A stretch of DNA of 63,846 bases, filler included, from Collodictyon triciliatum (lineage: Eukaryota): NCBI GenBank assembly GCA_043381765.1. It is 6 parts of 6 records of this genome, joined end to end, with 100 filler letters (N's around TTAATTAATTAA, not from the genome) between each part and the next. Parts side by side here need not be neighbours in the genome. Positions count along the whole stretch, not along the records: positions 21,777 to 39,953 come from JBHJMP010002564.1; 5 more parts are not named here. One strand, written 5' to 3'. Below are positions 8,334 to 61,977 of the stretch, piece by piece. Under the pieces are notes generated by a model. That model made no database searches, was not told the DNA's origin, and saw only the letters and a list, made by a program, of their open reading frames with translations. The position numbers were made by a program, and so were the translations under genes. Each line of letters starts with the position of its first letter. The first letter of the stretch is position 1.

Positions 8334-8631
8334 AGAAACACTATTGTAAGGTCTCTGTGACGTATCAGATTCCTCATATATTCCATTCATAGCATAACAT
8401 CATATCAATATAGTGATACAGTCTCCTTAAGAAAATAAATAGTAATATTTTACGATAGTTTTTAAACGAAGTTTAGGGGCGGATACATGATATAATAAAC
8501 TTAATTATTCGATTACCACAATGTGGTTCAATCCTCCTATTCACTTCATGATTCAACGACACGCTGAAGAGTTCATGGCCTTGAATTTTTTTTTGCACTA
8601 TTAGATATCTACCGAGTTTGCCTTTTTTCAA

Positions 8632-10787: not shown

Positions 10788-10887
10788 NNNNNNNNNNNNN
10801 NNNNNNNNNNNNNNNNNNNNNNNNNNNNNNNTTAATTAATTAANNNNNNNNNNNNNNNNNNNNNNNNNNNNNNNNNNNNNNNNNNNN
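10788..10887. other. Artificial scaffold spacer
   Basis: 44 N + TTAATTAATTAA (stops in all six frames) + 44 N. Confidence 0.97.
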
Positions 10888-21676: not shown

Positions 21677-21776
21677 NNNNNNNNNNNNNNNNNNNNNNNN
21701 NNNNNNNNNNNNNNNNNNNNTTAATTAATTAANNNNNNNNNNNNNNNNNNNNNNNNNNNNNNNNNNNNNNNNNNNN
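21677..21776. other. Artificial scaffold spacer
   Basis: Same 100-nt spacer. Confidence 0.97.
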
Positions 21777-22350
21777 TGTGTGTTTTATGTGTGTGTTTTA
21801 TGTGTGTGTTTTATGTGTGTGTTTTATGTGTGTGTTTTATGTGTGTGTTTTATGTGTGTGTTTTATGTGTGTGTTTTATGTGTGTGTTTTATGTGTATTA
21901 TTTGTTTTTTGTGAGATCTCTTCCGCTTTTGTCGCCGACAAGAATGAGAGTGATCAGATCTGCTTTGTCTGGATAATCCATAAATGGTATGCGCAATTAT
22001 AATTGTTTTTGATCAAAAAATCACGAGACAAAACGCAACGACAAAGCAGACCCGCACGCACGGTTCTACAACCCCCGTTCTTCGCACTTATCTCTCATAA
22101 CCAACGCGTGGTTTGCGTCTACTCGAAGATTATACCCAGGCCTGTCCAAGCGAACAGTGTCTCCTTATCAGAATCACTATAGGGGCGACTCAGTGAAGCG
22201 TTGTCACAATTTATTTCTTATCTCTCCGCGATAGAACAAGAGTTAACGTCAGCCCTTCCCACTCCCCTTTTCCCCGCCTGCCCAGGTTCAAAGCTCCCTC
22301 TTCCTTTCATCGGGTGAAAAAGCAGCCAAAGAGTCCAACTGTTGCCGCGA

Positions 22351-23809
22351 ATGCAAAACAACCTGAACGTGCATCTTGTGAGCGCCATGTTTCGCGACGC
22401 CCTGTCCAAAAACGTCCCGACTCTGGAAGATCTTCACTCAGCACAACAGACACACGCATCACACTCTTTAGCCAACCCGCGAGTGCAGACCGACCGCTCA
22501 GACATTAGTTAACTGACTCCACCGCGTCCTGGCCGGATTCGTCATTTGCGGCTTCGGCGCTTGGCTCCGGCTAATACACATCCGCGTTCAACAGCCTATC
22601 GCAGCGAAACAAGCCGGACACTAAGTTCCTAAAAGCCAAACACGCTACCAAGCTCGGCTGAACGCGCAGGTATTTCTCTGTCTCCTCTGCGCGTAGATGC
22701 ACCAAGTTCGTCGCTTCCAGGCTCTGGGCGAATCGGAGCCGATCGATTTATCGCTGAAAAAACAGTCGCCGACCGGGTAGAGTCTGGCCGAGTCCCTCCA
22801 GTAGTTGCCAGTCTCGCAATTCTCTCGTGGGACTCAATTGCCCATGACCCTGATTATGTGGCATCCGCAAGAGCCTGGCTTTGTCGCAACTACTCCCTTA
22901 GCTCGACTGCACCCAGTATGGATCAAAGACTTTTTGTCTCCTTTATTCGCGAGTTTACATCGGCTTGGTCTCTACCCCGTATTTATACGCTTTTTGATAT
23001 GATGGGTGAGTTTTCTTCTTTCTTTTTTTTATTATTTCAAAACCGGAATACCTTTGTATAATTGGAATGTATATCTCACGGTGTCATCATCCATGTTTTT
23101 TGCAGTTGAATCTCAAGACATATTTCATTCAACTCTCTATGTCCATTTTTTTTTCAATAAAAAAATCAATGGGATATAGCTTTTGCTCTCTTTTTTTTTT
23201 TGCAGTCTTTACTTACATTCATAAATATTCGTTTTTAAATAGACGAACACAATACTTGTGTCCTTGGATTCAACCAGATATACATGCTGATATGTCTTTT
23301 GATAGCACTACATAACGGTGCATGTATTCCGTTTTGGTAATTACTATTTTTTAAAATTTGTTCAGCTGTTTGAGACTAAAATCTGTTCCCTTCAGGCACA
23401 AATATCACGAACTGGTTCATCATCTCTTGACTCATGTCACCCTTGTTCCCACGGAAACCGTATCTGACTATTACAGGCTAGTACATATGCATTCACGTGG
23501 CTATTATTGTTGTTATTGTTGTTATGTATTTTATCGAATACTGTTCATATCAGTTAGTATCTTTATAATTTTGCGTCATAATAATTATGTAGGTTTGGAC
23601 ACACTATCGGATTATCATCTCAAATACTTGAAATCTCTCGTTTTCGTTTTGGATGGGCAATTACGAAAGAGTTGAGCAAGGATGAGTTTACCTTGTTTTA
23701 CTATACTGTTTTCAAAGAGTACGACCAAGGGTTGAGAGAGATGGCTCCACTTACAGTGAAAGCTCCACAATCATCCAATTCAAAATCAAGATGGTGTTCA
23801 ATACTCTGA
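22351..23809 (+). CDS. EFCAB9-like EF-hand-derived protein with C-terminal CaaX motif; start uncertain
   Basis: Spliced: FVSFIREFT...IYTLFDMM|DEHNTCVLGFNQIYMLICLLIALHNGACIPFW|HKYHELVHHLL...YYR|FGHTIG...DEFTLFYYTVFKEYD...SKSRWCSIL*. Resembles the EFCAB9 pattern VFDMLD...FYMLVCMLLA...EFKLY as I recall it. Confidence 0.65.
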
Positions 23810-24074
23810 CCCAGCTGTTCATTTAATTTCTGTTATTTCCTCTGAATGTATTATGAAATTTATCATTAGCTCTACTTCTCCTTAATATCGTACTATTTTT
23901 AATTTCCTATGACAAAATAAAAGACATATTTATTTATGTATCTCTCCTGGACAGTTATATCTATGTCACATTAACAATAATTGCACGTCTTCGCGCAGAA
24001 GTAATGAACGGAGAAAAATCTTCTGTATGAAGTTGTCTCGTTCCAACCATATATGAAAATAGGCCCTTGCCTTT

Positions 24075-24151
24075 TTTGTTTGTTTGTTTGTTTGTTTGTT
24101 TGTTTGTTTGTTTGTTTGTTTGTTTGTTTGTTTGTTTGTTTGTTTGTTTGT
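24075..24151. repeat. (TTTG)n microsatellite
   Basis: Lies between the EFCAB9-like gene and the ATG7 fragment. Confidence 0.95.
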
Positions 24152-24392
24152 CATTTATTCGGTACTAGTGCGCTTACATTAAATAATTAACTCTTCTCTA
24201 TCTGCGTGAGGCTAGCGCTTCTTGCCAACCAAACGAATTCCTATATGCTCAACTTTAATTATATTATCCAAATATAATAAAAAAATTTGTTATTGATTTT
24301 ATATTGTCATTGTAGCTTCCCTTGAATCGAATAAAGGGAACAAAATTCTTTTCAGCATAATTTTGAATAAAATGGTTGCTCGATCTTGATAG

Positions 24393-26721
24393 AGGATATT
24401 CCAGTGTTACTTTAAGTCAATGAATAGAAAATTGCAAATGCCAGATTTCTATACCTATGCCCGGTCACCCTATCTCTGAAGGTGAAAAAGAGAAGGTTCG
24501 TACCTGTTTATTCAATTATAATCCTATGGATATTGCAGTATATGAAGCATATTTAATTTGTGATATCATTTAATTTTTTTTCACTAATGTAGTTTGCAAC
24601 AGAATGCAATAATAAAAAAAACGGCAGATATTCGGCGAAAGACAATTTCTTAATGTATGTCAAAAATTTAAATTCTACATAGACTCGAAAGGACGTTGCT
24701 TTGCTAGAAGAGCTAATGACACTATTTTCCTCCTGACTGACACTCGCGAAAGTAGATGGCTACCAACTTTGTTGTCCACAAAATACGAGAAGGTCTTTTT
24801 ATTTTCTTTGTATTTTCTTTGTATTTTCTTTGTATTTTCTTTGTATTTTCTTTGTATTTTCTTTGTATTTTCTTTTTATTTTCTTTTTATTTTCTTTTTA
24901 TTTTCTTTTTATTTTCTTTTTATTTTCTTTTTATTTCCTTTTTATTTCCTTTTTATTTTCTTTTTATTTTCTTTTTATTTTCTTTTTATTTTCTTTTTAT
25001 TTTCCTTTTTCTTTTTATTTTCTGTTGGGTTACTTTGTGGTATAATAAATTATTTGTCCTTCGGCGAGAGAGGGGAGAAGTGCTTGTGAAGAAGAAAAAC
25101 AGGAGATGATATGATGGTGTTGTATTCAAGAAAAAAAAAGGCAATTAAAATTTTATGATAATTTCAAATGATTTGAGTAGATGACTATTAATTCGGCCCT
25201 TGGATTCGATTCTTATATGGTCATGAGGCATGGAAAAAAATCCCACCCCAAAAAATCGCGTCTTGGGTGTTACTTTTGCAACGATGTTGTGGCCCCCAAT
25301 GACGTAAATGATACTTTTATTCACCATATATTTGGATGTAAAAACGACTATCCACGGTACACCATATTATCGGTTTAAAATATCAATCATTCTTATTTTG
25401 TGGTTACTAGTCTCTGACTGATAGAACACTTGACCAACAATGCACTGTTACACGACCAGGATTGTCATTAATCGCCTCCTCGCTGGCAGGTCGGTCATAT
25501 ACTACTGAAATCATGTTTAAGATCGATTGGGTTTATTCATATATGTATATACTTTCGGTATTGCTAGCAGATATAGGCGATAAAACCACATACTCTTAAT
25601 GATCATGTTCACTTGTAGTGGAATTGATGGTGGCACTTTTACATCACCCTCTTGGGTATGTTGTATTTATTCAATGTCTTTATTATATTACGAATGTGGA
25701 CTAGGTGTCTTTCATTTAACCCATTTACCAGTCACCAACTGCTTAAAATATCGAAAACAGCGACAACGCCCCAAGCGAAGTTCCAGGACAGCAACCAAAC
25801 TCTGTTTTAGGTCTCGTTCCACACCAAACACGCGGAAATATTTCAAACTATTCGTTGGTTTGTCTATTCGTTGTATACCCCATCTTTCATACAAGCATAT
25901 ATTCCGCTTGAAGACTTTTACGGAGATTACGTTGCATCAATTTTGAGCTTCTTTGCAATTAAAAGTATAAGGTTGGCGAAGTGTAGGGTGATGACTAAAA
26001 GAGAAGTAATTTAGATGACCCTAACAGGATTCGCATTCGATAAGTGTACTGCATGTTCAGATATCGTAAATGCTGATATCCAATTACATGCAAGCTATAC
26101 TGTCATTTAACTAGGATTTTATCTGATATTTATACCCCTCTCATAATATATGTACATAGGTCGTCGATCAGTACGAAACAGCAGGATTCGAATTCTTGAA
26201 CCAAGTATTGAATTCCCCCACTTACCTTGGTGAGCTCTGATATTATGATGTTGTGATAAATGGAACGTGCGGCAAAATATGTCGTTTTTATGACCTCTTC
26301 AATTTACTTTCCTTTTGGTTTGTGGCTGCAGAGGACCTGACTGGGCTGACTGCGTTGAAATCAGGTTTGGGCGGTGTTACAGTCTATGCATTTTGATAGT
26401 GAATAGAGACTGGACTGATATTAAGTCAAAATATCCTTGAACGGCATGTTATTTCATATGAGTTATATAGAAAACTGATACAAACACTTTGCAAAATTCT
26501 CACACGTTCGATTTTAAATATGATTTATATTTTACAACCCGCCATCTACCGCCCCACCAGAACAATTTGATGTCGAATGGGATGAAGAGGATGGCTTTGG
26601 AGAAGAAACCGTGGGCTCCGATGAAGGCGAAGAAGATGGAGACGGACGCAATCAGCTCAAAGAAAAAGATGGCCACACGAAGGCGCCCGTCTCTTCTGGT
26701 GATGGTGATGACGATTTCTAA
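24393..26721 (+). pseudogene. ATG7: ATG7 (E1-like autophagy enzyme), C-terminal half only, with an apparent frameshift
   Basis: [82 protein letters not shown]. The frame breaks at about 24716 and no N-terminal half is found upstream. ATG7 identity is near certain; pseudogene versus assembly error is not. Confidence 0.7.
24800..25020. repeat. 11-mer T-rich intronic minisatellite (TATTTTCTTTG / TATTTTCTTTT)
   Basis: Inside an ATG7 intron. Confidence 0.92.
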
Positions 26722-27126
26722 GAACCGCTAGAGTGCGAGGTTGGGCAGCGGAAAACATATTCAGCAGCCCGTTATGGCATGAATAAACAAATGTCAGTCT
26801 CTTTTGATTTGCTGTGCGACATCACAGATTCTGATCATTTCAAGCCAATCCAGCGAAGCCCCATCGAGGCATGCGAGAGCACAGCGAACAGCAGACAAAA
26901 AAGAAATCTTGCTGTGAGGCTTTGTGGCATGAGTGCTTTTGGAATACAAACGAGCTCGGCTAGTTTGAACGTGGGGAGGAATTGTAGAAACATTCTCGTC
27001 TCTTTGTCTAGATCAGTATTATGCTGCTTCTTTATTGAAAAAAAAAATAAAACCAGAAAAAAAAAGTAACTTGGGAAGATGTGATCAAGAGAAAGGAAAA
27101 TGAGAGCCTGACTGAAAAGTGTTTAG

Positions 27127-29629
27127 ATGCCCGGCGTTCTCTCCATCTCAAGACAAAGTCTGTCGTTCTCCTCCACGGACGGAGCTCTTCCAGTTTTCTC
27201 CATCAATCGAACAACTGGGGTCGTCACACTTGGTCAGTCTCACAATTATAATCACGATCATGATCAGAATAATAATAAGTAAAGCATTGGTCAAAATGAT
27301 TTTCTTTGAAGAGTAACTGCCCCCTTTCTTTTTTTTTTTTCTTCTAAAGCTCATGGTTTACTCACTATTAACTGTTCGTTCTAAAAGATGCTCCGAGCTC
27401 TGTTACGTCGGAGCGCACGGTAAACTTTGAAGCTCTCTTTGGTATCATCAACCTTCCTTCAGGTAAAGCTATGCAAGTTGTTTTTTGTTTTTGTTTTTGT
27501 TTTTGTTTTTGTTTTTGTTTTTGTTTTTGTTTTTGTTTTTGTTTTTGTTTTTGTTTTTGTTTTTGTTTTTGTTTTTGTTTTTGTTTTTGTTTTTATTTCT
27601 ATGAATGGAACTTTAATGGCCGCTTCGCTTATCCTTCCCACAGTTTGTACTTATTCGTCTATTGTCAGGTGATCATGTTATTCTGGTGACTGAGATTAAA
27701 ATGGTTGCTTATGTACTGGAGAAACCCTTCTATCAAATCACCGGTACCGAGGTTATTCCTGTGAAACTGAATCCTGACGGAGGGGTCAGCAAGAAAGTGG
27801 GGATATGCTTTGAGATATATTCATATGAAAATAATCATGAGGCGAATCTTCATGTTATATGTTGTATGTATTGAATCACAGCAGGTGTTCTATGCAAATA
27901 ATTTATTTATTTATTTCAAGTATCCCTTGTCTTCAACAAAACGAACTGTAGCTCGCCGACAAGTACCTCAACTTGCTGAAGCAGCAGTTGAAAACCCCTA
28001 GCTTTTACTACTCTCCTGGCTATGATCTGACCACTTCACTCCAAGCTGCGCAGAATGTTGATCCATCTGCCCCAGTCACGCAAAGAGTAAGAAATATTTT
28101 GTTTTAAAACATAATAAAATGCAACCATGAAGTTGGATTAAATTTAGAAGAAGAAGAAAAGGAAAGGAATGATTATGTGACTTTGCTTGGATAATAGGTT
28201 CAGCAGGAATTCATGTGGAATTATCACGCCTCCCGAAAACTTTTGGATAATCCAGATGTAACCCACCCGAATAAATGTTAAGGATATTTTTGCATACCTC
28301 TCTTTTCATGTTATTTACCCATTCACTAAAAAACGGAAATGCTTACTTGCTTTCCAAAAGCTTCACCCTTGGGTTGTTCCTGTCATATGTGGATGTATCC
28401 AACACTTTTCATAAGAAACATGGTACATTTGATGAGTGAGATAATTTCTAGATTGAAAATGCGTATATAATAACTACTATTGTACTTGACTATTCGAAAG
28501 TTGTTTTCTCGAAAAACGCTTCTATTTCCAGCTCGGCTTTCTCCTATACGCTGATTTCTCGTCGCAGCCGACTTCGTCCAGGTATATTTTCCTTTGTATT
28601 ATATTCTCACAGCACTATTTGTTATTACATAACCCCTTCTTCTTTTTTTTTTCATTTACCATGAGAGCTATAGTAAAATACCCTGTGTAACTTGATGCTA
28701 TAAGGAACACGATACTTTGTCCGTGGAATTGACACAGATGGAAATGTCGCAAATTTTGTTGAAACGGAGCAGGTTATTACCATATATATTCGAAGTTTCC
28801 TTTCCATTCATTTGATTTGGGAAAATGTAATATATTTACTGAATATACTTTTTTGTTTCCTCAGATTTTAACGAAGGGCTCTACAACATCCTCTTTTTTA
28901 CAAATCAGAGGATCTATTCCACTTATTTGGTAGCTGGTTCAATCAATAATACAAAAAAGAAAAAGAAAACTTAAAACGTCAGGCTTTCCACTGCTATAAT
29001 AAAACAATAAAAGGACATTTTCTTTTCCAAAAGCATATTCACCAGAGCTGCAGATAATATCATTCATTTTATGTTCTAGGAACCAAACGCCGAATATCAA
29101 ATATAAACCCAGTATCGAGGTGAATCCCTCTCCGCTTAATGTAAGATTCTCTTACTTTTATAATTAAATTAACAAGAAATGATCGGAAAAATCATAATGT
29201 AGAAGGAAAAGAATAGAGAACATTTGATCGTTATTTGGTAGTATTATTACCATTATTTGGTATTTACAGACCCTATTTATGTCATATGTTCATTTTAGGA
29301 TACTGCATTTGAGAAGCATGCAAAGAAAATGAAAGAGCGCTACTCCAAAGTAACCTTAGTTAATCTGGTTGACGCCAAGGGTGGGGAACTTAGACTTGCC
29401 TCGGTTAAGACTATTACTGAACAAAAAAAAAAATTATAATTATATATGATCTAAATACGCTAACAGATGGCATGTAAGTCGAGCTGATCTAATTATATAC
29501 CTACAATACAGACTTTTGAGCAGAAAAATACAAAGTATAGCAGCATGGGCATGCGGTAGATGATTTTAGATTATTTTTTTTTTGAATATAGAGTTCATTT
29601 TTTCTGCTTTGAATTGTACTTGTTAATGA

Positions 29630-29691
<62 letters not shown>

Positions 29692-31571
29692 GCGTAGATA
29701 CATCCACTTTGACTTCCATAAGAAATGCAGCGGGATGAAATATCAAAACTTGATAGAGCTTCTGAAGAGCGGTACCCTTTTCTTTTTAAATTAAAATTAT
29801 GTATGGTGCATTCATCACCTAGAGAGAGGTGTTTTTTCTACTTTTCCATGGATTATCATGTACTCAAACGCGAAATATTGGGATTAGTGGAGAACGATAT
29901 TATCGAGTTTGGGTTTTTCTCTAAGGCTGATGGAAAAGTTCAAGTAGATTTTTTTTTATGATGTTAAATTATATTTTACTTTTCCTGTTTCCTGTGAATG
30001 AAAAGGTCTTTCGCTTACTTGTTTTCCCCTTTGACATTAGCTTATGATGATTAAATTAAGAATAAAAATTCCTTGTAAAATCATATCAGAGCATCCAAAA
30101 CGGCGTTTTCCGCACAAATTGTGTCGATTGTCTGGACCGTACTAATGTGGTCCAAAGCATGCTTGCCCGCTATGTGCTGAACCAACAACTACAGGTTTTG
30201 CTTGTTTTTTGTTTGTTTGTTTGTTTGTTTGTTTGTTTGTTTGTTTGTTTGTTTGTTTGTTTGTTTGTTTGTTTGTTTGTTTGTTTGTTTGTTTGTTTGT
30301 TTGTGGGAAACTGGTATTCTAGCGTAAATACGATTACACCACATGTGTCTTTTCAAATATTAAGAAATCATCATGATGTGCTTAGGAAGTCGGCATCCTC
30401 AATGAAAACGAGACGTTTGATAGATATGCAGCGTTCGAAACAGTTTTCAAACATGGTAAAAAAAAAAAAAAAACCTGGCATGAACTTTTCATGTTACCTT
30501 GACTGATTTTTTGTGGTTAAGAAAAAAATCTTTTATTCGATTCAAGCTGTGATTGAGAAATTTTAAATGGCTAATACCTTATACCTTCATGGGCAAAAAA
30601 AAAAAGTTTGGGCTGACCACGCGGATGCAGTAAGCACTCAATACTCTGGAACACCGGCCCTAAAGACTGACTTTACGCGGTAGGACTTATTTACATATGA
30701 AATGATTCAGAACTTTCATTTCATTCGTACTATTTTGCTTTCTATACTGTGATAGCACTGGGCGCCGTACCTACCGTGGGGCTATCGACGACGGAATCAA
30801 TTCGTTGAAGCGCTACGTGCTTAACAACTTTTACGACGGTGAAAGACAAGTGAGTTAAATTTGAAGCCATCAGAATAATGTGATTACGCAGCAAAAATAA
30901 GATAGCTACTGAAGCTCAACTTTTTTTTAAAATAATAATAATAATCCTCATTACTTGAATATTTTTTTTTCACTCGTGTGTGTCTGTGCTAGGATTCGTA
31001 TGACCTTATTCAAGGCAACTTTTTCCCCGGACAAGGAAAAGACCCGTTCGCCAACTTGACTGTCATTCGCCTGGTAAGAAGTCTTCCCTTTTTCTTTCAT
31101 TCACGCGGATGCTTGAAGGCAACCGACCCCAAAACGAAATTCTTGAATTAGCATCTCTGAAGTCTACTACAGTTTGCACTGTTTTTTGTTTTTCGAATTC
31201 ATTTGAGCAAACACACCAAAGGTCATTGTCTTGCTTATGATTGCCATCTTATTTGTTGTCGGCTCCACTTTCCCTCCGAGTAAGTCGCCCGATATTAAAT
31301 AAATCCAGTATTTCCTTTTGGCGATATGGCTATGAAGCCCCGATGCACTTGTAATCAAAACTTTGTCCACAAAGAAATCTATATCACACATGCCTTTGGA
31401 TTATCCTTGTTAAAATGATTTGATGATAATAAAACAGGCTCGGACCCAGCAGACTTTGCTCTCTTTGCCGTGTCGCTGGCCTTGACGTGCTTCGTGCTGT
31501 TCCGCATAGCCGTGGCAGCATCATCCAAGCTTGTGGATTACCCGGCGCTGAACCCAAAGTACCGCAGATAG
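27127..31571 (+). CDS. SAC1: SAC1 phosphatidylinositol-4-phosphate phosphatase, many exons
   Basis: [33 protein letters not shown], catalytic [16 protein letters not shown] (CX5R), [34 protein letters not shown], two C-terminal TMs. Confidence 0.95.
27480..27595. repeat. (TTTTTG)n intronic microsatellite
   Basis: Inside a SAC1 intron. Confidence 0.95.
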
Positions 31572-32276
31572 ACGCCCCAAGTCAACACCGCTTGCGTCTG
31601 GCTGGAATCGAACCTGCATCCCACAGTCACCCGAATAAACCCATCCCTTCAAAGCCGGCAGAAAAGGAGTGAACCCTCCATCCAAACATTGCGCGCCAAA
31701 AGAGTTCATAACGGTTCACACTAAATATGGAAAATTCCACAACGGCTTCTGCACCGAGTTGCATCTCTTTCATTGAATGCTGGCAGAGAACGCGCCAGCT
31801 GTGCGGCCTTGGGGGAGGCCTATTTCGCTCGGATTGTCGGATAAAGATGCAAACCAGACTATCACAGAGGAAAGAAACTCGATGGAAGTCCCTGTGTATT
31901 GGTTGATTCGCCGCAACTGCCGTTCCCTTGCCGCAGGCGCCACTTCCCCCCGCACGAGCCCAGAGCCGGATGGGAGAGACTGTGTTGTGCGCACGCGGGT
32001 TGTGAACGGATCATTTCTTCCTGACCGCACGATTTATTTCTCTCATAGACCAAGGGAAGAAACCCCACGCAGAAGGAAGCGATAGGGTCTCGAAGAACGT
32101 CCCGGCCTTCGTCTCCTTTGCCCAGCGCCACTTCTTCCGCTCCTTTCTTTTCTTGGAAGCTTGAACCGCACTCAGCCCGGATAGTTGGACCGGATTTCCC
32201 AGACAGCCCACCTTTTCCGAAGCACCCCAGCAAAAACTGTACTGGGTCACCCTCCCCGGCCGAGAGAGAAAGGAAG

Positions 32277-32421
32277 ATGTCGTCCGGGTCAAAAAACGAT
32301 CGCTTCTGGCTGGATCCCAACCTCGCTGCGGTGGAAGCGGCGCCGCCCGTGAAGCCAAAGAACTTTCCTGGTGTGGAGGAGATCACCTTCAACGCAGCAG
32401 AAGAGCGCAAACAGGTACGCG

Positions 32422-32510
<89 letters not shown>

Positions 32511-33023
32511 TTCTCTCTTTTCTCTCTCTCTTTTCTCTCTCTCTTTTCTCTCTCTCTCTCTNNNNNNNNNNNNNNNNNNNNNNNNNNNNNNNNNNNNNNN
32601 NNNNNNNNNNNNNNNNNNNNNNNNNNNNNNNNNNNNNNNNNNNNNNNNNNNNNNNNNNNNNNNNNNNNNNNNNNNNNNNNNNNNNNNNNNNNNNNNNNNN
32701 NNNNNNNNNNNNNNNNNNNNNNNNNNNNNNNNNNNNNNNNNNNNNNNNNNNNNNNNNNNNNNNNNNNNNNNNNNNNNNNNNNNNNNNNNNNNNNNNNNNN
32801 NNNNNNNNNNNNNNNNNNNNNNNNNNNNNNNNNNNNNNNNNNNNNNNNNNNNNNNNNNNNNNNNNNNNNNNNNNNNNNNNNNNNNNNNNNNNNNNNNNNN
32901 NNNNNNNNNNNNNNNNNNNNNNNNNNNNNNNNNNNNNNNNNNNNNNNNNNNNNNNNNNNNNNNNNNNNNNNNNNNNNNNNNNNNNNNNNNNNNNNNNNNN
33001 NNNNNNNNNNNNNNNNNNNNNNN

Positions 33024-33069
<46 letters not shown>

Positions 33070-33156
33070 TTCTCTCTTTCTCTCTTTCTCTCTTTTCTCT
33101 CTCTCTTTTCTCTCTCTCTTTTCTCTCTCTCTTTTCTCTCTCTCTTTTCTCTCTCT

Positions 33157-33238
<82 letters not shown>

Positions 33239-36200
33239 CCTTTGTCCAACTCCGTCTGCGCGACCAACAAGCAAATCTGCTGATCAAATCCTGCGCCTGC
33301 AGCTCACGGCGGATGAGGAGGACATTGCGCTGCTGACCGTGGACGAAGCCCTGTTCCTGAGCTTCTCATGGGTGGGCGAGCTGATGCACTGGCTGCTGCT
33401 ACTGGCCACGGGCGGGCTGTACTGGCTGGTCACGCGCTGGGTGCGAGGGCTGGAGGCGGCTGTACGCTACCGCCGTGTTGCCTCGCCCGACCCCGCGGCA
33501 GACTACGTGCTGGCCTACTCCATCGACCGCTTCGAGGAGATCTGCCCTATCCGCTCCATCGACCCGCGCACAGGTACTCCTGAGTGGGTTCCGGTGAGTC
33601 AGGCCCGCTCGGCCGCCGCAGCATCCTCAGCGTCGCCATCGGCCTTCCCATTCCCCCGCATGTTCGAGTGGCGCCACGAGCGCTTCTGGTTCGACACGGC
33701 CGCGGGCAAGTGGGTGCGGCTGCAGTTTGCCGTGAATCAGGCGTCGCACCGGCTCCACGACATGGCTGCCACACTGGCCTTCCGCAACTGGGACGCCATG
33801 AAGGCTGCCCAGACCGGGGCGGCGGCGCCTCTGGGCGATCTCTACAAGGGTGACCTCTCATGGGACGATTACACCCGCGACCTGACCTACGGCATCAACA
33901 TCATCGACATCAAGCCCAAGCCCTTCATCGTCCTCATCAAGGACGAGGCCCTCAAGCCCTTCTTTGTCTTCCAGATCTTCTCCCTGATTGTATGGTACTT
34001 CCAGGTTTGTCCTCAGTCTCTCTATCTCCTTCCTTCCTTCATCTTTCATTTCATGATTTTGGGGGCCAGGCTCATGGACATAATCCTTCGCCCCATGCTC
34101 CATTTGTGCAGGCGTACTACCTCTACACGGGCATCGTCTTTATGTTCACCATCATCTCGCTCTGCTCCACATCCTTTGTGACGTGGCGAAACCAGCACAG
34201 TCTGCAGCGCATCGCAAAGTCCGAGGTCCCTGTCACAAAGCTCTTCTTGTCAAACAAGCAGAGCACAGAGGTCATTTCGCCCGAAGTACTGCACCGCAAT
34301 GGCCGCAGCAAGGGCACTGAACGCACCCGCCCCTGGGCTCCCGTCCCGACCTTCCATCGCGAGGTCATCAGCAGTGCAAAGCTCCATCCGGGCGACTTGA
34401 TTGAGATCACCAACGGCACCACCATCCCTTGCGACATGATCCTGCTGTCTGGAAGTGTTGTCATCAACGAAGCCATGCTTACCGGTGAGAGTGCCCCAGT
34501 CCAAAAGACATCTATTCCTTACCATCATGGTGATGGCCCAAGCACAGACCAGAGCTCCTGGTTCAGACTCGGCTCCGACCGCGATGCAAAGTATGTTTTG
34601 TACTCGGGCACAAAAGTTGTCCAGGCAAAGCCCCAACCTGCAGCCATTTGCAACCCCATCGCAGAGCGACAACAATCTTCTGATCAGTATACATATAAAA
34701 ATCCTCAAACCATCTGGCAGGTACCCATCGTTTTCGATCTGATGATAATCAAAAAAAATTAACATTCAATTGAATCAGCCTTCTCAGGTTTTCTTTGATT
34801 TTTGTTCCATTTTTTTACATAAATAATACCCATCCATCAGTTCTCCATGGACCAAGCAGCGGCCTCATATTCCGAACATCTTAAAACTACAGATATATCT
34901 GAAGCTGATATCGAGAAAAGGGTTCAAGTTTTCCTCGATTCCTTCAAGAATAGAGAGAAATCTCTCCCCATTATTGGCATGGTCATCAAGACAGGCTTCA
35001 ACACCGCCAAGGGGAAGCTGATTCGCGCTATACTCTATCCAAAGCCCTCAAAATTCGATTTTGACAAGCAAATGGTGAAGTTTATGATCATTCTAATCGC
35101 CGCTACCCTCGCTGGGTGTCTCGCCACTGTTGGATTCTACGAAGACCAAGGAGCTTCCAGCTTGGATACACTCTTAAGTTGCTTGAATATTGTTACTGTT
35201 GCCATCCCCCCTGCTCTCCCACTGGCTCTCTCCGTTGCCCTCACGACTACTTTTTCTGAGCTGCAGCTCAAGAAAATCTTTTGTATCAACCCGAATCGTA
35301 TCGTCCCTGCCGGTCGTGTGAACACTCTGTGCTTTGACAAGACAGGAACTCTGACTGAAGATGGTCTTACCCTTAAGAGTGTCCATACACTCACAGCCTC
35401 CGATGAACATGACGTTCCTCATGACGGAAACCCAAAGTCCAAATCCATGATGTCACACACCACACTCAGTCAGCCAGAGACAGACCTTGTCACATTGTAT
35501 CAGAAGGTTTCTACATCTGAGCAAAAAACACGTTTGTTTACTAATAAGACTTACATGACAAGAGACGGTATTATTGCTCCTTGTAGACTCGGGATGGCCT
35601 ATGTTGTCGCTGCATGCCACAGGTATTGTCCTTAGGGGAAAATGGCATTCAATTTATTTTTTGTCAGTAATCTACATATCGACGATAAAAGAAATTCCAG
35701 AAACCTTTACATTTCCTTTAAGGGAAAACAATAATTTTCTCATATAGATATGCTCTATTGATAAAAAAAAATATATATGTTATATATAGCCTTGCTGTCC
35801 TCGAAGAGGATGACCTCAACGACGATGACATCTCCGTCGATATGGAGAAGGAAGGAAAGAAGAAGCCAGAGAAGGAGCCCACTGGAGAATATAAAGAGCA
35901 GTTTGTTGGAGACCCACTCGAGATTCAAATGTTCGCCCAGTCTGGTTGGAGATTCGATACTAGGTCGTCAATCAACAAGAAAAGAGGGATGTTTGGCTCT
36001 CAGGTTTTTTTTAAAAAAAAAAATGTTTCAGTACGATGAAATGGCGAATAAAATAAGAATAACCCCTTAATGCTACTATAGTGCTTATATCATAATCTTC
36101 AAGAGTTCGTAGATTTTTTTTTAAAAAAAAAAAAAAGATAATTATTTAAGGCAAGTTCTTAAATCATGACACATCTTAGGTTTGGGATGACACCAATCTT

Positions 36201-39200
36201 CCCTCAGCGACTGAAGTTGTAATGGTGCCACCCCAAGTAGCTGGTGCTGACGAAGCTCTTGCCATCATCCGGCGATTTGATTTCGATTCCACACTTAGAA
36301 GAATGAGCAGTGTGGTCTATCATTCCCCGATTGAAAAGCAGAGAAGAGACGATATGTACTTCTCTACTTTAGTGAAAGGTCTGATGAATAATAGTAAAAA
36401 TCATACAATTAATTTAACCTCTCATCAATGAATCGGATACTTATGATTCAAAATATAGGGGCTCCTGAAAGTCTGCGTGAGCTTTGTTACGAATTCAGTA
36501 TCCCAGCTGACTATGACCAAGTTCTTCATAACTTAACAATGGAGGGATATCGCGTTCTTGCCTGTGCATATAGACCATTCACCGCTCGTGAAGTCATTGG
36601 CCCTGATGCGTCGTCCAGCATGACACAACAGGAACTCATGGAAGCTACCCGAAAGTACGTATCATCATCTCGCCGTGATGAGATGGAGAAGGACCTTTAC
36701 TTTGCTGGATTTATTGTTATGGAGAACTCCTTGAAGAAACCCACTCTGCGCTACTTGGAAGAATTCATTCGTGCTGGTCTTCGATGTATTATGGTGACCG
36801 GTGATAATCCGATGACTGCTGCTGCTGTAGCAAAGCAATGCGATCCATTCTTCTTAAGGCCATCACGACGCACTGTTCTGCTCGACCAAATCAAGGAGCC
36901 TGGACAGGAAGGAAAGCTTGTGATTCGCGACTTGTTGAAGCCTGAAGTATCCACAAACTTCTTTGCGTTCCTCAGAAACCGGAAGGACCACGCCAATATC
37001 AAACTTACTGGGGCCAAAGAAGTAGACCTTGTTGATGACTATGCCGGAACAATTCCAGCCGAACTCTCCACTGAACTGGATATCGTCGTGACTGGCGCAG
37101 CCTTCCAAAAACTCCAAATGATTCACGAGGAGTACATCAAGGAGCAGCAAGAAAATGCACGCAAGAATGGTGAAAAGTAATGCTTCCCTTCGTCATGTTA
37201 TTTTCAGTTTACACTATTTTATATCCGAATATTAACATTTTCTCTGTACTCTCTTTGCTTCATATTTAGGTTCAACCGCAACGCTGGCTTTCACCTGACA
37301 CCGTATCATCTCGTCTTAACCAGAGCAAACATTTTTGCCAGAATGTCCCCACAAAACAAGCAGGAGCTGATGACCTCTCTTCAGGACATTTCACTAGTGG
37401 TTGCTATGTATAGAACAAATATTTTCTTTACACAAGAACTATGTCCAAATTATTTTTGTTTTCATCTTTTCTCTAATACTAACACACGTAATCTGCTGAA
37501 TAGGACGGGAGATGGTGCCAACGATTCTGGAGCACTGAAGTCTGCCGATGTGGGACTCAGTATTCGCGCCAATGATAATGAAATTGAGGATGCTTCTAAC
37601 TCTGCACCAACGATTGCTGCACCCTTTTCAACATCCTACTCTCATATTGGAGCTGTATGTCTTTTTCCTCTCACACGACCACGCGGTTTTTAGTATCTGC
37701 ATTGATTCATTATTTAAAAAAGAAAGTACACGATAAACTGTCTGTACTTACATATTTTTGTTTCCCTCTGTAGTTGTCCATTCTCTTGACTGAAGGGCGT
37801 GCTTGTCTGGTATCGTCCTTCTCCATGTTCAGGTTTATGTTTTCGTACGGTGTCATCCAGTTCACATCGGTCCTTATTTTGTACCGCCTTGTGCTAGAGC
37901 TTCACAATAACCAGTACTTGTGGTCTGATTTGTGTAAGTGTATCCCATTCCCCTCCTTCTCCAGATATGAATTGTCTCATTCAACCCCCAGCATGACAAA
38001 AAATTCTTGTTAGTCCTTGTGTTCCCACTTGCTGTTGTCATGCCCACCATCAAAGCAAAGCCCACCCTCAGCCGAGGACGCCCAGAATCCGATCTGTTTT
38101 CCCCCAGTATTCTGCGCTCTGTGATAGGCCTTGGCGCCATCGTTGCCATCTTCCAAGTTGGGGCTAATGAGTACTTTCGAACCACCTGTAATTCTATCAC
38201 AACGTTGAATCATGCCGCACTTGTATACCATTTTCGCGCCTAATGCGTCTGGGCTGATAACACAAGAGAAGAGTAACCGCTGCGCTTTATTATCTTATCC
38301 AACAACAGCTGATTTCATTGTGCCTGATGATGACACTGACACCACGAATAACCCGGACACCAGCCAAAGCTATGTTTTCTCATCCTTCCAATACACCGCG
38401 GTGGGAGTGGCTGTAAGCCAGAGCTACGGTGTGTTCCGCCAGCCTTTATACCGCGCATATCTTCTGTGTCTGGTGTTTTTGGCCCAGTTTGGCATGAACT
38501 CTGCCATGTTGCTCGGGTAAGTGCATATACGCCTGACATGTATTGCGCATACTTCCCCTCTCTACTTTCTTCTTCCTCTATGTTGTTCCTATCTGTTCTT
38601 CGATTATTGATGCGTGCTCATCATTTTCGTTTCGTGCAGACCAAATGACGACATTAAGGACTACTTCAAGATTATCCCCCCAGCATGGGAAGTAAGGTAC
38701 GGCCGCCCTCGTCCAGGGTTACATCTTCTTTGTCCTCTCCATATATGCCCCACAATGAACTCGGACATGAATGAGCGCAAGGTCTCGTGAACGAGACCAT
38801 CGTGTTTGAAGTTTGGGTTCTTCCTTCCCGTCACCGTCTGTTGCTGATTCCCCCATTCATTCTGTTGTTGCAGAATCAAGCTGTTCGTCTTGGCCATTGC
38901 AAACAGCATCGTCTTCGTGTTGTATGAGCGCTTCTGTGTCCCTCACCAATCACCCGACGAGGAGCCCTTCGATGTGGACGCGGTGGTCAAGGAAATCAGG
39001 CCGCGGGAGCATTCTGACACTGTGGTACGCTGTATTTCGACATCGGCCCTGCCACAACTGACAGCAATACTCTCTTCTATTCTCCTCTCCCAACGTTCTG
39101 TTGCCTTCTGCTCGCACTCACACTAGACCCACACAGCCCTTGGAGCACGACAAGGCCGACTTCCAGCCTACCTTCCTCCCCAAGCTGCGCTGGGCTGTGC

Positions 39201-39265
39201 CGCAATACACCATCATCCAGTCGGTTACTTCCCCCATCTGGTCGGCCCTGGCCTATGCCCAGTGA
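32277..39265 (+). CDS. P5B-type ATPase (ATP13A2-5/Ypk9-like polyamine transporter family)
   Basis: PFFVFQIFS, LTGES, PPALP (P5B-diagnostic M4), CFDKTGTLT phosphorylation site, KGAPE, VTGDN, ARMSP, GDGAND. Confidence 0.95.
32422..33235. repeat. (CT)n-rich intronic tract spanning an N gap
   Basis: First intron of the P5B-ATPase. Confidence 0.93.
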
Positions 39266-39599
39266 GCCAACATACTTCAGTCAAGCCGATGGTGCTTTCC
39301 CTTTTTTCTTTTCTTTTTTTCTACTCAACCCCGTTCATTCACACACACACACTCTCTCTCTCTCTCCTTCATTATTTCAAAGTCCTTCGCGCACACAGCT
39401 CGCTTGCTGGCTGCGACAATCCGGCGGCTGCAAGCGAGCTTCCCATCTTTCGCTTCGCTTATCAACCTTTCTCTCTTCCCCTGCTCAGGCAACATTTTCA
39501 GTTGCCTCGATCCCTGGGTCGGAAGGAGCACAACTTCAGAATAAAGGGGCACCATATGAGAAAAAAGATGTCAGCCACGATGAGAAGTCGTCGCACTGT

Positions 39600-39760
39600 C
39601 ATTCGTTTGTATGTTGTTTAATAGAAGGGGTATGCCATCTTTCGATTGGTAAACCTGGTGCGCTAGTATCCAAGGTCTCTCCACTTTTTTCAAAAAGATT
39701 GTGTAGTGTTGAATGCCGCCAGGAAAGACCCAACAGCCTGATTTTTTAAAGAGAGGTGTA
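39600..39760 (-). ncRNA. Candidate Fanzor omega-RNA scaffold plus flanking guide
   Basis: Overlaps the ORF 3' end. Nested inverted repeats, a GAAA-tetraloop hairpin (39633-39651) and potential pseudoknot pairings. Inferred, not demonstrated. Confidence 0.5.
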
Positions 39761-39953
39761 TTTGTTTTTTTTGGGTTGGGGTTAAAAGAACTTTGTTGAG
39801 TATATTTATGGCGCTGTTAAAGTCCCTTGTCAAGAATACAGTTTGTTTGCTCTCTAAGCGATTGCATTCTTGACATATGAGACATATATACAACTTTTTT
39901 GAATTTTCTTTCAGTGTTACATATTCCAGTTCTTTTTCGCAGTTGTAGCACAT
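39620..39953 (-). mobile_element. 3' end of a Fanzor/TnpB-family element (zinc ribbon + RuvC-III), truncated by the scaffold end
   Basis: ORF 39690-39953: CYNC-x22-CQEC then TVFLTRDFNSAINIL, the CxxC..CxxC..RDxNxAxNI signature. Intronless and AT-rich; right boundary inferred. Confidence 0.85.
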
Positions 39954-40053
39954 NNNNNNNNNNNNNNNNNNNNNNNNNNNNNNNNNNNNNNNNNNNNTTA
40001 ATTAATTAANNNNNNNNNNNNNNNNNNNNNNNNNNNNNNNNNNNNNNNNNNNN
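39954..40053. other. Artificial scaffold spacer
   Basis: Same 100-nt spacer. Confidence 0.97.
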
Positions 40054-40202
40054 TTTTGTTGTCTTTTTGTTGTCTTTTTGTTGTCTTTTTGTTGTCTTTT
40101 TGTTGTCTTTTTGTTGTCTTTTTGTTGTCTTTTTGTTGTCTTTTTGTTGTCTTTTATCCTCTCGGCAAGGGAAATATAAAATGAAATGAAAAATGTAAAT
40201 AC

Positions 40203-41948
40203 TTACTGTCTCACTGTTGAAACTAATACGTAGGTGCATCCTATACTTACTGCCACAGCAACTAATGTAAAGATGATAGGACTTGGATCTGCTCCATACA
40301 CTTTATTGAATGTCTAGATTGAGATACAATTATGTTCAAATGAGACTGGTTAGTTATCAAATATATTTTTGAATCCTTCATGAACACAACGTTTTAATTC
40401 TTTTCATATTTTATTCACCTGTCCAGCCAAAAGCCAGCACCCGATAACAAACGGAGAAGAGACAGAACACCAAAGTATTTTCGCCTCATCGAGGTAGGTA
40501 ATTGATGGGTACATTAAAAGCCGGTAAGACTCCTACAAAATAATGAGAGTCAACATAATTATATTCAAGTTGTCTGGTGGTGCATAAGATTTGGTCTCTC
40601 ATAATAAAACCAGAGAGAAGGGAAACCCCATAAACTTTATCAGATATACCTGTAACTTGTACTTGTTAAAATACAAGTCGGTATACAATATGACAGGCGG
40701 CAACCAATGTATAAAAACAACGATAATCCACGAAAACTCAAGGGGCGTTTGTGTTGTCGAAGACAAAGACGAGACCATGTTTCCGTTATAAAAACTCATC
40801 ATGGTGATTGATAGTGAAAAAATCACAAAAGATCCGTTGAATGCTATGCAATGAAACAGAACTACCAAAGGGCTGTAAAGTTTTTGGCTTAAAGCTATAT
40901 CAAAATAGAATATATAAGACATCCAAAACCAAACAGCCAGATCTTCAACTATAACAGGAAACTCCCATATAGTGATCAGGAGGAATAAAAGCAATGCAAA
41001 ATAAATGATTCTTCTTAGCGATAGACGGTAAAATAAGTGAAGAAATACGTTTGAGCTGTCATAGATTGGGATTATGTTCCACAAGTATGCTTTTGTGCGG
41101 TGGTCATCATGCCCATCTCGGGAAATGTCTTTTACTACTAACGAATTATCAGATATTGATGCATATCTCCCCCAAGTTTGAAGACTTCTATCATGGCTCA
41201 ATATTGGTTGGATTAAGGAGGAGTCTTCCTCATCTTCACTGCGGTTTCCAATCAAACTCGCCTCAGAGACCTCCTGCCAACCAAGGACACTTCTCAGGCA
41301 GAAAACTATACCAATTCCGGAAAAGAAACAAAGAAACACACAGAGAAATATGACCAAGGAAAGTGGGTGTGACGAACCATAGAGCCTCTCCTCGTCGGTA
41401 GACTCTTTCCAAATGACCATGATAACTGGAGACGAAACGGTTGCCCAGAGTACTGCACTCAACAAACCCCAATGGTCATCGGGCCCTCGTATGCGATAGC
41501 AGTTTGCAAGGAAGCGCCTGTTCAGATACAGGTCCGAGATGAAAATGATTGGCGGCAACCAATGTATGGCAACAAGCAGCAAAGCCCCAAATCTTTCCCT
41601 TATGTCTACCTCCCTCGAGTAATTTTCTACAAACTCGTCCCATCCACTCTCAAAGCAGCAGATAATCGAGTGGAAGAACACCATCATGGCTCCTGAAAAT
41701 GTCACACCGTGCAAGACAAAGGTTATTGGCGCGTCTCGCTTTGCTGTGATATCGATGTCAAAATAAAGCGTGTCCATGAACCAGTACCAGACCGCCACAT
41801 CCTCGAGGAGCTCATTTTTTTGTGATGTGACTGCAGTAAATGATATCAGATAGATATAAAAACACAACTTCCTCAGGTACACAAGGTTGAAGTGTGGACG
41901 GGTTTCAATGTAGTGGAATATCGCCTTTACTATTTGCCTCCATCCCAT
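40203..41948 (-). CDS. Internally duplicated multi-TM protein, FAR-17a/AIG1-like
   Basis: Two copies of ED[VL]AVW.W....YFDI...H...F.G...IHWLPP....DLY.N...LW..VSSP...YG. The second copy is completed by exons at about 40419-40532 and 40203-40313. Confidence 0.7.
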
Positions 41949-42126
41949 TCTTGGGCCTTACTACCTGTCGAAAAAAAAAATATATGCTCATTTATTGGAC
42001 GTGCTGTTTGTCGCAGTAAATGTCTCATTTTGCTAGAGTGGGGTACCATCCGTGATTATTACTCGACATCTCAACTTCTAAGAATTGAAAGGCCAAAGAA
42101 AGAAAGAAAATACCCAGCCCTTAATC

Positions 42127-42232
42127 TGAAAATGAAAATGAAAATGAAAATGAAAATGAAAATGAAAATGAAAATGAAAATGAAAATGAAAATGAAAATG
42201 AAAATGAAAATGAAAATGAAAATGAAAATGAA
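42127..42232. repeat. (TGAAAA)n microsatellite
   Basis: Directly visible. Confidence 0.95.
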
Positions 42233-42751
42233 ACGAAGGAAAAAAGACTTGAAGCTCATGTGCTCAGAAGCGGTCACCAACTAGCAACAAGCATCCGAAC
42301 CAGCTGGGCACCACCAACAAAGGGCGAGTGTCCTGGGGCGCAAGGAAGTTTCTTGTGCGGCTGATCTCAAGCTGCACGAAGAAAAAAGTGAAATTGGGAG
42401 GAGTTGAAGCGTACTCGACTAATTGTGGAAAGTATAATATTATTAAGTTTATGTCTTATATCTATTTTAATACATAAACATTACCAATTATAGTATATGA
42501 TAATATACTAGAAAACATGATAAATTCATTTTTTAATTCATACGTTACCATATGTTTTTGTAACCACGCATAACTGAGAAAGGGAAAAAGATTGCCCTCT
42601 CACATGCCACCAACAACAAATAAGATTGAAAACACACCTATTTTAGGAATTTTTCAAACAAACACAATAAATCCATAAATAGAAATGATCGAAAATGAAT
42701 ACATCGGTTTATATATTAAAATCGCTCTTCTGCAAAGTTATCGAGTAATAG

Positions 42752-50826: not shown

Positions 50827-50926
50827 NNNNNNNNNNNNNNNNNNNNNNNNNNNNNNNNNNNNNNNNNNNNTTAATTAATTAANNNNNNNNNNNNNNNNNN
50901 NNNNNNNNNNNNNNNNNNNNNNNNNN
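50827..50926. other. Artificial scaffold spacer
   Basis: Same 100-nt spacer. Confidence 0.97.
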
Positions 50927-61699: not shown

Positions 61700-61799
61700 N
61701 NNNNNNNNNNNNNNNNNNNNNNNNNNNNNNNNNNNNNNNNNNNTTAATTAATTAANNNNNNNNNNNNNNNNNNNNNNNNNNNNNNNNNNNNNNNNNNNN
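61700..61799. other. Artificial scaffold spacer
   Basis: Same 100-nt spacer. Confidence 0.97.
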
Positions 61800-61977
61800 G
61801 AGAGAGAGAGAGAGAGNNNNNNNNNNNNNNNNNNNNNNNNNNNNNNNNNNNNNNNNNNNNNNNNNNGGATGCCAGAATCGAACGAGAATATGTTCTCTTC
61901 CTTCTCTTCAATATTGATATCTCTTTTAAATATTCTGTATTTCGAATTACAAATGTTTGATTTTCGTTCGTTTTGGC

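Follow-up and report, generated by a model that had tools for sequence, protein, structure and literature searches.

Fanzor proteins share the motif D-X-[TS][TS]-X-X-[C4]-X-RD (PMC3627910), and SPu-1 elements are bounded by 30-33-nt terminal repeats and putative TA duplications (PMC3627910; PMC10432273). The guide RNAs (omega-RNAs) of Fanzor1 proteins are described as 75-150 nt long, opening with a stem-loop (7 bp in three solved complexes) and at times overlapping the end of the open reading frame (ORF) (PMC11423790; PMC10432273). They extend from the 3' end of the ORF through the terminal repeat and the duplication into the flanking DNA (PMC10432273; PMC10711439), with the SpuFz1 RNA reaching 14-15 nt past its scaffold (PMC10432273) and the SfAV Fz1 RNA about 15 nt past the duplication (PMC10711439). 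Here we analysed a candidate template for such an RNA in the genome of the eukaryote Collodictyon triciliatum (GenBank assembly GCA_043381765.1). The window, i.e. the whole stretch of DNA that was analysed, comprises 63,846 nt, and the region in question lies at 39600-39760, at the 3' end of a minus-strand Fanzor1 gene fragment on the contig at 21777-39953 (JBHJMP010002564.1). We consider it reasonably probable that the interval from about 39740 to 39619 on the minus strand is the right end of one diverged copy of a cut-and-paste Fanzor1 transposon, which is the segment that is transcribed into the omega-RNA scaffold in Fanzor1 elements. The region is a plausible omega-RNA template. If confirmed, it would be a further Fanzor1 element that carries a template for a guide RNA, found in a freshwater microbial eukaryote whose lineage is sparse in databases, and would leave the understanding of Fanzor systems unchanged.

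The described systems resemble this locus to different degrees. SPu-1, the element of SpuFz1, is a Fanzor1-only element with repeats of about 30 nt and putative TA duplications (PMC3627910; PMC10432273), which is the build that we also found in distant relatives of the Collodictyon protein (see below). SpuFz1 further belongs to the same protein family and has an RNA without a pseudoknot. Its scaffold, however, is 75 nt long and follows the stop codon, whereas the conserved segment of our element spans about 120-170 nt, including the last 14-16 codons; moreover, there is no sequence similarity between the two, and the window contains neither the left end nor most of the gene. The omega-RNA of GtFz1 from Guillardia theta is described as 150 nt long, with several stem-loops and an overlap with the 17 C-terminal amino acids (PMC10432273; PMC11423790). 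RNA size and ORF overlap are thus like those proposed here, the two RNAs being compared by description only. For the Fanzor1 guide RNA (reRNA) of Spodoptera frugiperda ascovirus 1a (SfAV), the published description gives three stems, no pseudoknot and a scaffold that includes repeat and duplication (PMC10711439). This matches the closing helix UUUACAC/GUG-UA-AA of the distant relatives and the TA at the boundary of our element, but the window lacks the relatives' partner sequence for this helix. The prokaryotic ISDra2 TnpB omega-RNA is alike in having a scaffold that shares sequence with the 3' end of the nuclease gene and extends to the right end of the element, the flank supplying the guide. 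ISDra2 differs as an IS200/605 element without terminal repeats or duplications, and its RNA has a pseudoknot, a feature reported to be missing from Fanzor1 RNAs (PMC10432273).

The protein evidence comes from an ORF of 87 codons and a stop on the minus strand (39690-39953), identified as the C-terminus of a Fanzor1-type nuclease from the ORF list, a phmmer search and a profile comparison with the PDB. The stop codon occupies 39690-39692, and the frame is open up to the end of the contig at 39953. In the alignment, its initial M corresponds to an internal position of the relatives (..SKMCC..), which indicates that the gene was cut by the assembly and not by biology. Because the contig ends at 39953, about 550 upstream codons are absent and the catalytic residues of RuvC-I and RuvC-II are out of view. 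The translation contains two CxxC pairs (residues 2-5 and 27-30; 39864-39950, minus strand) of a zinc-ribbon (TNB) domain, followed by the RuvC-III motif RDFNSAINI (residues 43-51; 39801-39827, minus strand); this is the Fanzor1 order of a C4 zinc ribbon and then the RD of RuvC-III. In alignment A1, which comprises the fragment and 20 relatives (21 sequences), C27, C30, R43, N46 and N50 were invariant, and D44, S47, A48 and I51 nearly so.

An exhaustive phmmer search with the fragment retrieved 21 proteins at E ≤ 1e-3, the closest of which (P0001) was 75% identical over 48 residues. Another relative, the 634-residue P0015, contains GADPG, NEFRTSK and TRDLNSAQNI; among solved structures it matched SpuFz1 (E 9e-37) as well as PpFz1, and weakly GtFz1 (E 7e-16). 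The profile built from alignment A1 likewise matched PpFz1 (9cf0, E 2e-11) and SpuFz1 (8gkh, E 1.2e-8) at their C-terminal RuvC/zinc-ribbon part, so that homology to experimentally characterised Fanzor1 proteins was recovered both through P0015 and through the profile. Given the CxxC pairs and RDFNSAINI, the relatives and the profile matches to PpFz1 and SpuFz1, the assignment of the fragment to the Fanzor1 family is sound as judged from sequence, and the identification made in the earlier, sequence-only reading of this window holds. In Pfam, the fragment alone did not hit PF07282 and matched just two zinc-finger families (E 0.15 and 0.33), while PF07282 was reached by four of the 21 relatives, each under its cut-off. 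A word-indexed protein search at the 'near' and 'longer' lengths returned nothing at E ≤ 1e-3, which is weak evidence. Within the window, blastn and tblastn searches, including those with five full or partial relatives, matched the fragment alone and yielded no second Fanzor copy.

To place the right end of the element, we turned to other copies of the family. Parts of the interval 38800-39953 were contained in 20 public runs, none of which had half or more of its words. Four runs (X1-X4) were compared with this interval using their contigs, which give no information on the strand or on where RNAs end. That X1 and X2 are RNA is a guess, though both carry the spliced form of the neighbouring host gene and both include contigs that match this gene exactly. 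X3 is a true RNA library that had no cover on the Fanzor part, and absence of cover was not used as evidence; X4 contributed one 104-nt contig on this part. The aligned contig pieces, 38 in X1 and 51 in X2, were mostly 80-95% alike and covered 39622-39953, and depth was zero across 39580-39618 in all four runs. The farthest-reaching contig aligned from 39622 and continued with 28 letters unlike the window. This pattern is that of a multi-copy element ending at 39619-39622 on the minus strand, and we placed the right end of the element where the similarity among copies stops. The sequence-only reading had placed the end near 39620, at TTAA, and the contigs agree with this placement. Directly past the boundary, TA at 39620-39619 within TTAA (39621-39618) is a candidate target-site duplication on the minus strand, in line with the TA found at both ends of TA-duplicating relatives. 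Moreover, the boundary sits 179 nt past the NI of the RuvC-III motif, and the conserved, covarying 3' RNA module of the distant relatives ends 178-228 nt past this motif. The segment shared by the copies thus runs on the nuclease strand from the ORF to 39619-39622, i.e. from the 3' end of the ORF up to the right end, as is characteristic of omega-RNA templates.

The copy in the window diverges from the others by about 10-18%. It carries a less favourable base for pairing at three stem positions at which all, or almost all, of the other copies have a different one. Together, divergence and weaker pairing suggest that this copy is probably old and possibly inactive.

Distant relatives of the fragment were collected by a protein motif scan of viral contigs (128 relatives, 80 kept) and of metagenome contigs (395 relatives, 80 kept). 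The 80 kept viral relatives were 35-61% identical to the fragment; among the 80 kept metagenome relatives, the best full match was 57% identical, and a match of 72% extended over just 29 residues. The collections that were searched (metagenomes, viruses and prokaryotes) yielded no close copy. Many of the relatives' loci (L001-L160, e.g. L008:2705-2844 and L010:474-2843) lie on contigs labelled as giant virus, in elements of about 2.4 kb.

In 129 of 159 of these loci, a conserved block ended in GGTGTAA(A/T) 150-240 nt past RuvC-III and gave way to unrelated sequence. After removal of near-duplicates, 44 modules remained. They consist of a helix, P0 (GUCU/AGAC, UGACC/GGUCA, GGCU/AGCC and others), that encloses a 7-bp stem-loop, followed by a small hairpin, expanded in some subtypes, and a long closing helix of UUUACAC with GUGUAAA at the very end. 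Alignment A4, which covers P0 and the stem-loop, had 97.3% of 373 cells paired in comparison to at most 49.6% when the partners were slid, and 68 cells changed on both sides in comparison to 18.3 in shuffled alignments (0 of 500 shuffles). In alignment A3 (the whole module of one subtype), 96.2% of cells were paired, and eight double-change pairs contrasted with 3.2 in shuffled data (0/500). The 3' module of the relatives is a real RNA-like structure. It ends in a terminal repeat of about 30 nt and TA, the closing helix including the TA; nine of 19 loci examined had inverted ends of 27-31 nt about 2.4 kb apart. In the eight of these nine that were read in detail, TA flanked both ends, with a T before the left-end TA in seven, and the right-end TA was followed by A in all 44 modules. 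The T before the left TA and the A after the right TA make the target look like T-TA-A. Subtype A, which is nearest to the fragment protein (L002:2695-2725, L081:2118-2160 and others), additionally has a long hairpin in the coding region, GCCCUUCCGUG..CACGGAGGGGC, just upstream of P0, with compensatory changes between loci that were seen by eye.

By eye, the Collodictyon region shares with the relatives the motif order GUCUUUC, UUCA(A/C)CAC, GUGG and AGACC. Protein alignments extend into the tail as far as 39699 for locus L098 and 39729 for L099, and the fragment codons GSF, which hold the 5' strand of a helix GGUCU/AGACC, align on the relatives' SSF/LTF codons, the site of their covarying P0 5' strand. 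We follow this coincidence as a lead, according to which GGUCU/AGACC occupies the P0 position. This helix (39674-39730, minus strand) pairs GGUCU (39730-39726) with AGACC (39678-39674) and appears in the minimum free energy (MFE) structure of a 125-nt scaffold. It can be extended to 9 bp (39730-39722 with 39682-39674) and encloses an SL1-like hairpin. AGACC lies 47 nt downstream of GGUCU, and the chance of such a complement within a 30-nt range was estimated at about 3%. The sequence-only reading had paired the same strands (AGACC 39726-39730 with GGTCT 39674-39678) as part of a pseudoknot; the complementarity is present and coincides with a helix position that covaries in the relatives, but it is nested and no pseudoknot.

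The enclosed SL1-like hairpin (CACU ... AGUG, 4 bp; 39682-39708 on the minus strand, 39708-39705 with 39685-39682) contains the stop codon (39690-39692) in its loop. It was matched by eye to the relatives' UUCACCAC...GUGG and was not confirmed by covariance models. Just upstream, the minus strand is predicted to form a hairpin, Hx (GCUGUUGGG / UCUUU / CCUGGCGGC; 39715-39737), whose arms at 39737-39729 and 39723-39715 form 9 bp, four of them G-U, in both the MFE and the centroid structure. Hx had gone unrecognised as a hairpin in the sequence-only reading. Its best 27-nt local fold reached -12.6 kcal/mol in comparison to -6.5 ± 1.8 kcal/mol for shuffled sequences, a value attained in one of 200 shuffles. 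The same DNA on the plus strand gave just -1.3 kcal/mol, so the hairpin is specific to the coding strand of the Fanzor gene. The strand-specific 9-bp Hx or the weak SL1-like hairpin of 4-5 bp might be the counterpart of the first stem-loop (SL1) that Fanzor1 RNAs have on their 5' side. Hx and P0 compete for 39726-39730.

Differences among copies were evaluated per site, without linkage between sites, for the best-supported positions (51 further differences lie beyond these). Among them, no variation was found in the strands of P0 or in 39718-39740. At 39714 (T>G) and 39717 (C>T), every covering contig differed from the window (five in X1, ten in X2 and one in X4); the first variant adds a G-C pair to Hx and the second converts a U.G pair to U-A, and with both natural variants Hx is stabilised from -12.3 to -16.5 kcal/mol. 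The variant 39709 T>G, present in six of six X1 contigs, four X2 contigs and the X4 contig, adds a C-G pair to the SL1-like hairpin (from 4 to 5 bp, -2.3 to -4.8 kcal/mol) and restores the relatives' UUCACCAC motif. A further variant, 39700 T>C, occurred in four of four X1 and three X2 contigs. The copies also vary at 39680 and 39752, which face each other in a stem, and these changes may be compensatory, as far as such unlinked per-site data allow. A 21-mer of the invariant hairpin core had no match in viral contigs; one match among prokaryote genomes, in the contig of a Nitrospirae metagenome-assembled genome, showed nothing alike beyond the 21 bases and was rejected as chance, since about 0.3 such matches were estimated to arise by chance.

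Relative to the distant relatives, the 3' arm of Hx derives from a 12-nt insertion, CUGGCGGCAUUC, which encodes LAAF in the protein tail. It may be speculated, with little probability attached, that this insertion created a new stable hairpin mutually exclusive with an ancestral P0, giving two alternative 5' folds, and that the 3' domain was much shortened, a GAAA hairpin having replaced the relatives' domain of about 70 nt. The result would be a distinct compact scaffold, perhaps one whose conformation switches as the overlapping ORF end is translated.

The sequence-only reading had described the region as a set of nested stems with a GAAA tetraloop and a pseudoknot. All of its complementarities exist in the sequence: CTCTC (39677-39681) with GAGAG (39751-39755), TGTTG (39707-39711) with CAACA (39731-39735), CCAGG (39719-39723) with CCTGG (39654-39658), and AGACC with GGTCT as above. 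As an omega-RNA structure, however, this set did not rise above chance in folding energy or in 5-mer counts: the interval 39600-39760 holds 18 perfect 5-mer complementary pairs, in comparison to 12.0 ± 4.2 after shuffling, and 99 of 1000 shuffles reach 18. Hand-found complementarities of 5 bp in about 160 nt are hence at chance level, which is a methodological lesson, and the informative evidence is the copy-shared boundary together with the comparison with the relatives' covarying 3' modules. The TGTTG/CAACA stem does not survive the comparison of copies, as 39709 T>G removes its middle pair in all contigs named above for this variant and no compensating change was seen among the best-supported differences. 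The terminal hairpin CCA(A)UC-GAAA-GAUGG is present on the minus strand (39635-39649) but weak (-2.9 kcal/mol). A pseudoknot geometry would also be at odds with two reports, which describe Fanzor1 guide RNAs as free of pseudoknots (PMC10432273; PMC10711439). An Rfam search of 39000-39953 gave four matches with E 0.6-9, far under the gathering scores, none of them in 39600-39760. What stands of the original idea is the tail of a Fanzor1 element with an end near 39620 and a reasonable flank-derived guide; its specific structure does not.

If the locus behaves like SpuFz1, GtFz1 and SfAV Fz1, the minus strand would give rise to an RNA beginning near Hx or P0 (about 39738-39730). Its scaffold would overlap the last codons of the ORF and span the terminal repeat (about 39651-39622) and probably also the TA duplication. 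The guide would then be provided by some 15 nt of flanking sequence beginning around 39618 (AAACAACAUACAAAC..). The candidate guide-templating flank, at 39596-39618 on the minus strand (AAACAACAUACAAACG...), is assigned by analogy with SpuFz1 and SfAV Fz1. An RNA that overlaps the ORF end and runs through the element end into the flank, as the sequence-only reading had assumed, agrees with the guide RNAs described in PMC10432273 and PMC10711439. The resulting RNA would be about 120-140 nt long, inside the known Fanzor1 range, and the nuclease of the family would be expected to cleave flank-matching targets beside a target-adjacent motif. Production of this RNA, its start and end and its binding by the protein are all transferred from these characterised systems.

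Several results weigh against an omega-RNA template at this position. No match to the nearest relatives' 3' RNA module was recovered: across the entire window, covariance model R1 (whole module) gave 13 matches with E 1.4-9 and model R2 (P0 and stem-loop) 18 matches with E 0.28-9.4, none of them in the region, and targeted searches peaked at 2.7 bits (E 1.1) for R2 and 1.5 bits (E 1.7) for R1. Local alignment to the 44 modules scored 23 in comparison to 22.2 ± 2.6 for shuffled sequences, 197 of 500 being as good, and no nucleotide similarity was found between the 3' region and any of the 160 relatives' loci. Folding energy was unremarkable, with z = +0.05 for the 171-nt stretch on the minus strand (106 of 200 dinucleotide shuffles as good; plus strand z = +0.46, 129 of 200) and z = +0.35 for the 125-nt putative scaffold (194 of 300). 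The variants at 39717 and 39714 are synonymous third-codon changes (Ala79 and Ala80), so that coding constraint explains both equally well. In a hand count of the best-supported coding differences in 39801-39953, five of 15 fell at third positions, as expected under neutrality; shared descent alone may thus account for the conservation, and the copies may be decaying. Finally, the left end of the element and the remainder of the gene are absent from the window.

Much of this would also fit a region that is merely a 3' untranslated region (UTR) plus a terminal inverted repeat, conserved by recent common descent in a family without any guide RNA, an explanation that we consider unlikely. In its favour, the stems are at chance level, the covariance models miss the region, an excess of third-position changes is lacking among the coding differences considered, and the other copies are about as far from this one in the coding part (about 9-16%) as in the 3' part (about 11-15%). 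AUUAAA is a variant of the poly(A) signal, and its occurrence at 39622-39617 on the minus strand could mark the end of an mRNA. On the other hand, Hx is strand-specific and above chance, and distant relatives of the fragment protein have a covarying RNA module at the same place. The Fanzor1 proteins examined experimentally in three reports also all have a guide RNA here (PMC10432273; PMC10711439; PMC11423790).

The position of the boundary bears on another explanation, namely that about 39620 is not the true end of the element and that a 3' truncation or a rearrangement has removed the real right end, and with it part of the scaffold, from this copy. A truncation point would likewise make contigs of intact copies part from the window, the loose ends considered at the boundary are the smaller part (34 more exist), and nothing in the window corresponds to the relatives' terminal block (TTTTAAAT..CAAGGGTGTAAA). 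The only alternative for a closing helix is GUUUA (39654-39650) with UAAAC (39620-39616), five A/U-rich pairs that we keep as a lead only. We nevertheless regard truncation as quite improbable, in view of the distance of 179 nt from RuvC-III, which falls within the 178-228 nt of the relatives, the TA within TTAA directly past the boundary, as at the relatives' ends, and the X4 copy, whose loose end before 39637 resembles by eye the last 15-20 nt. The occurrence of a single copy in the 64-kb window, tail to tail with a host gene, could in turn point to a host-domesticated, Fanzor-derived gene with the region as its ordinary 3' UTR. This is very improbable, as dozens of contigs that are 80-95% alike in two runs reveal a multi-copy, diverged family, and the break of the assembly within the gene is what a repeat would cause. 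The right end of a diverged Fanzor1 transposon copy is hence the reading that we prefer for this locus.

The contig that bears the fragment (21777-39953) is eukaryotic. A host gene on its plus strand encodes P-type-ATPase-like motifs and is spliced in public RNA runs, with a GT..AG intron at the joint 39023/39136 in RNA-run contigs. A second form of a joint, 39024/39142, was found in three runs with five extra letters, which suggests a slight difference between assembly and transcript. The gene converges on the Fanzor fragment, the two being arranged tail to tail, and has an AATAAA at 39540-39545 on the plus strand. RNA-run contigs that match it exactly stop at 39546 and 39559, just past this motif; the host transcript thus ends about 60 nt short of the end of the Fanzor element. 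The spliced neighbour and a histone-fold, H4-like gene in the next contig provide the eukaryotic context expected for a Fanzor1.

The window strings several contigs together, with spacers of 44 N, TTAATTAATTAA and 44 N at 10788-10887, 21677-21776, 39954-40053, 50827-50926 and 61700-61799 that put stop codons in all six frames. Since these joints are artificial, features are not to be read across them; the joint at 39954-40053, which has no strand, separates the Fanzor fragment from DNA of another contig. Other N runs in the window measure 406-708 bases, apart from one run of 50 N at 61817-61866, shortly after the joint at 61700-61799. An R1 match elsewhere in the window (8380-8469, minus strand; 11.5 bits, E 2.4; 24% G+C; UCGUUU..AAACUAUCGUAA..UUACUAUUUAUUUU) is probably due to chance, as no Fanzor-like ORF lies nearby. 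In the contig after the joint, an ORF of 449 amino acids (40599-41948, minus strand) has many hydrophobic stretches and matches no Pfam family at E ≤ 0.001. Adjoining the joint itself is a microsatellite-like array (40054-40165, minus strand) with an 11-nt unit, (AAAGACAACAA)n, and a microsatellite-like array of dinucleotide type at 42100-42250 reads as (MK)n or (IF)n in the ORF list.

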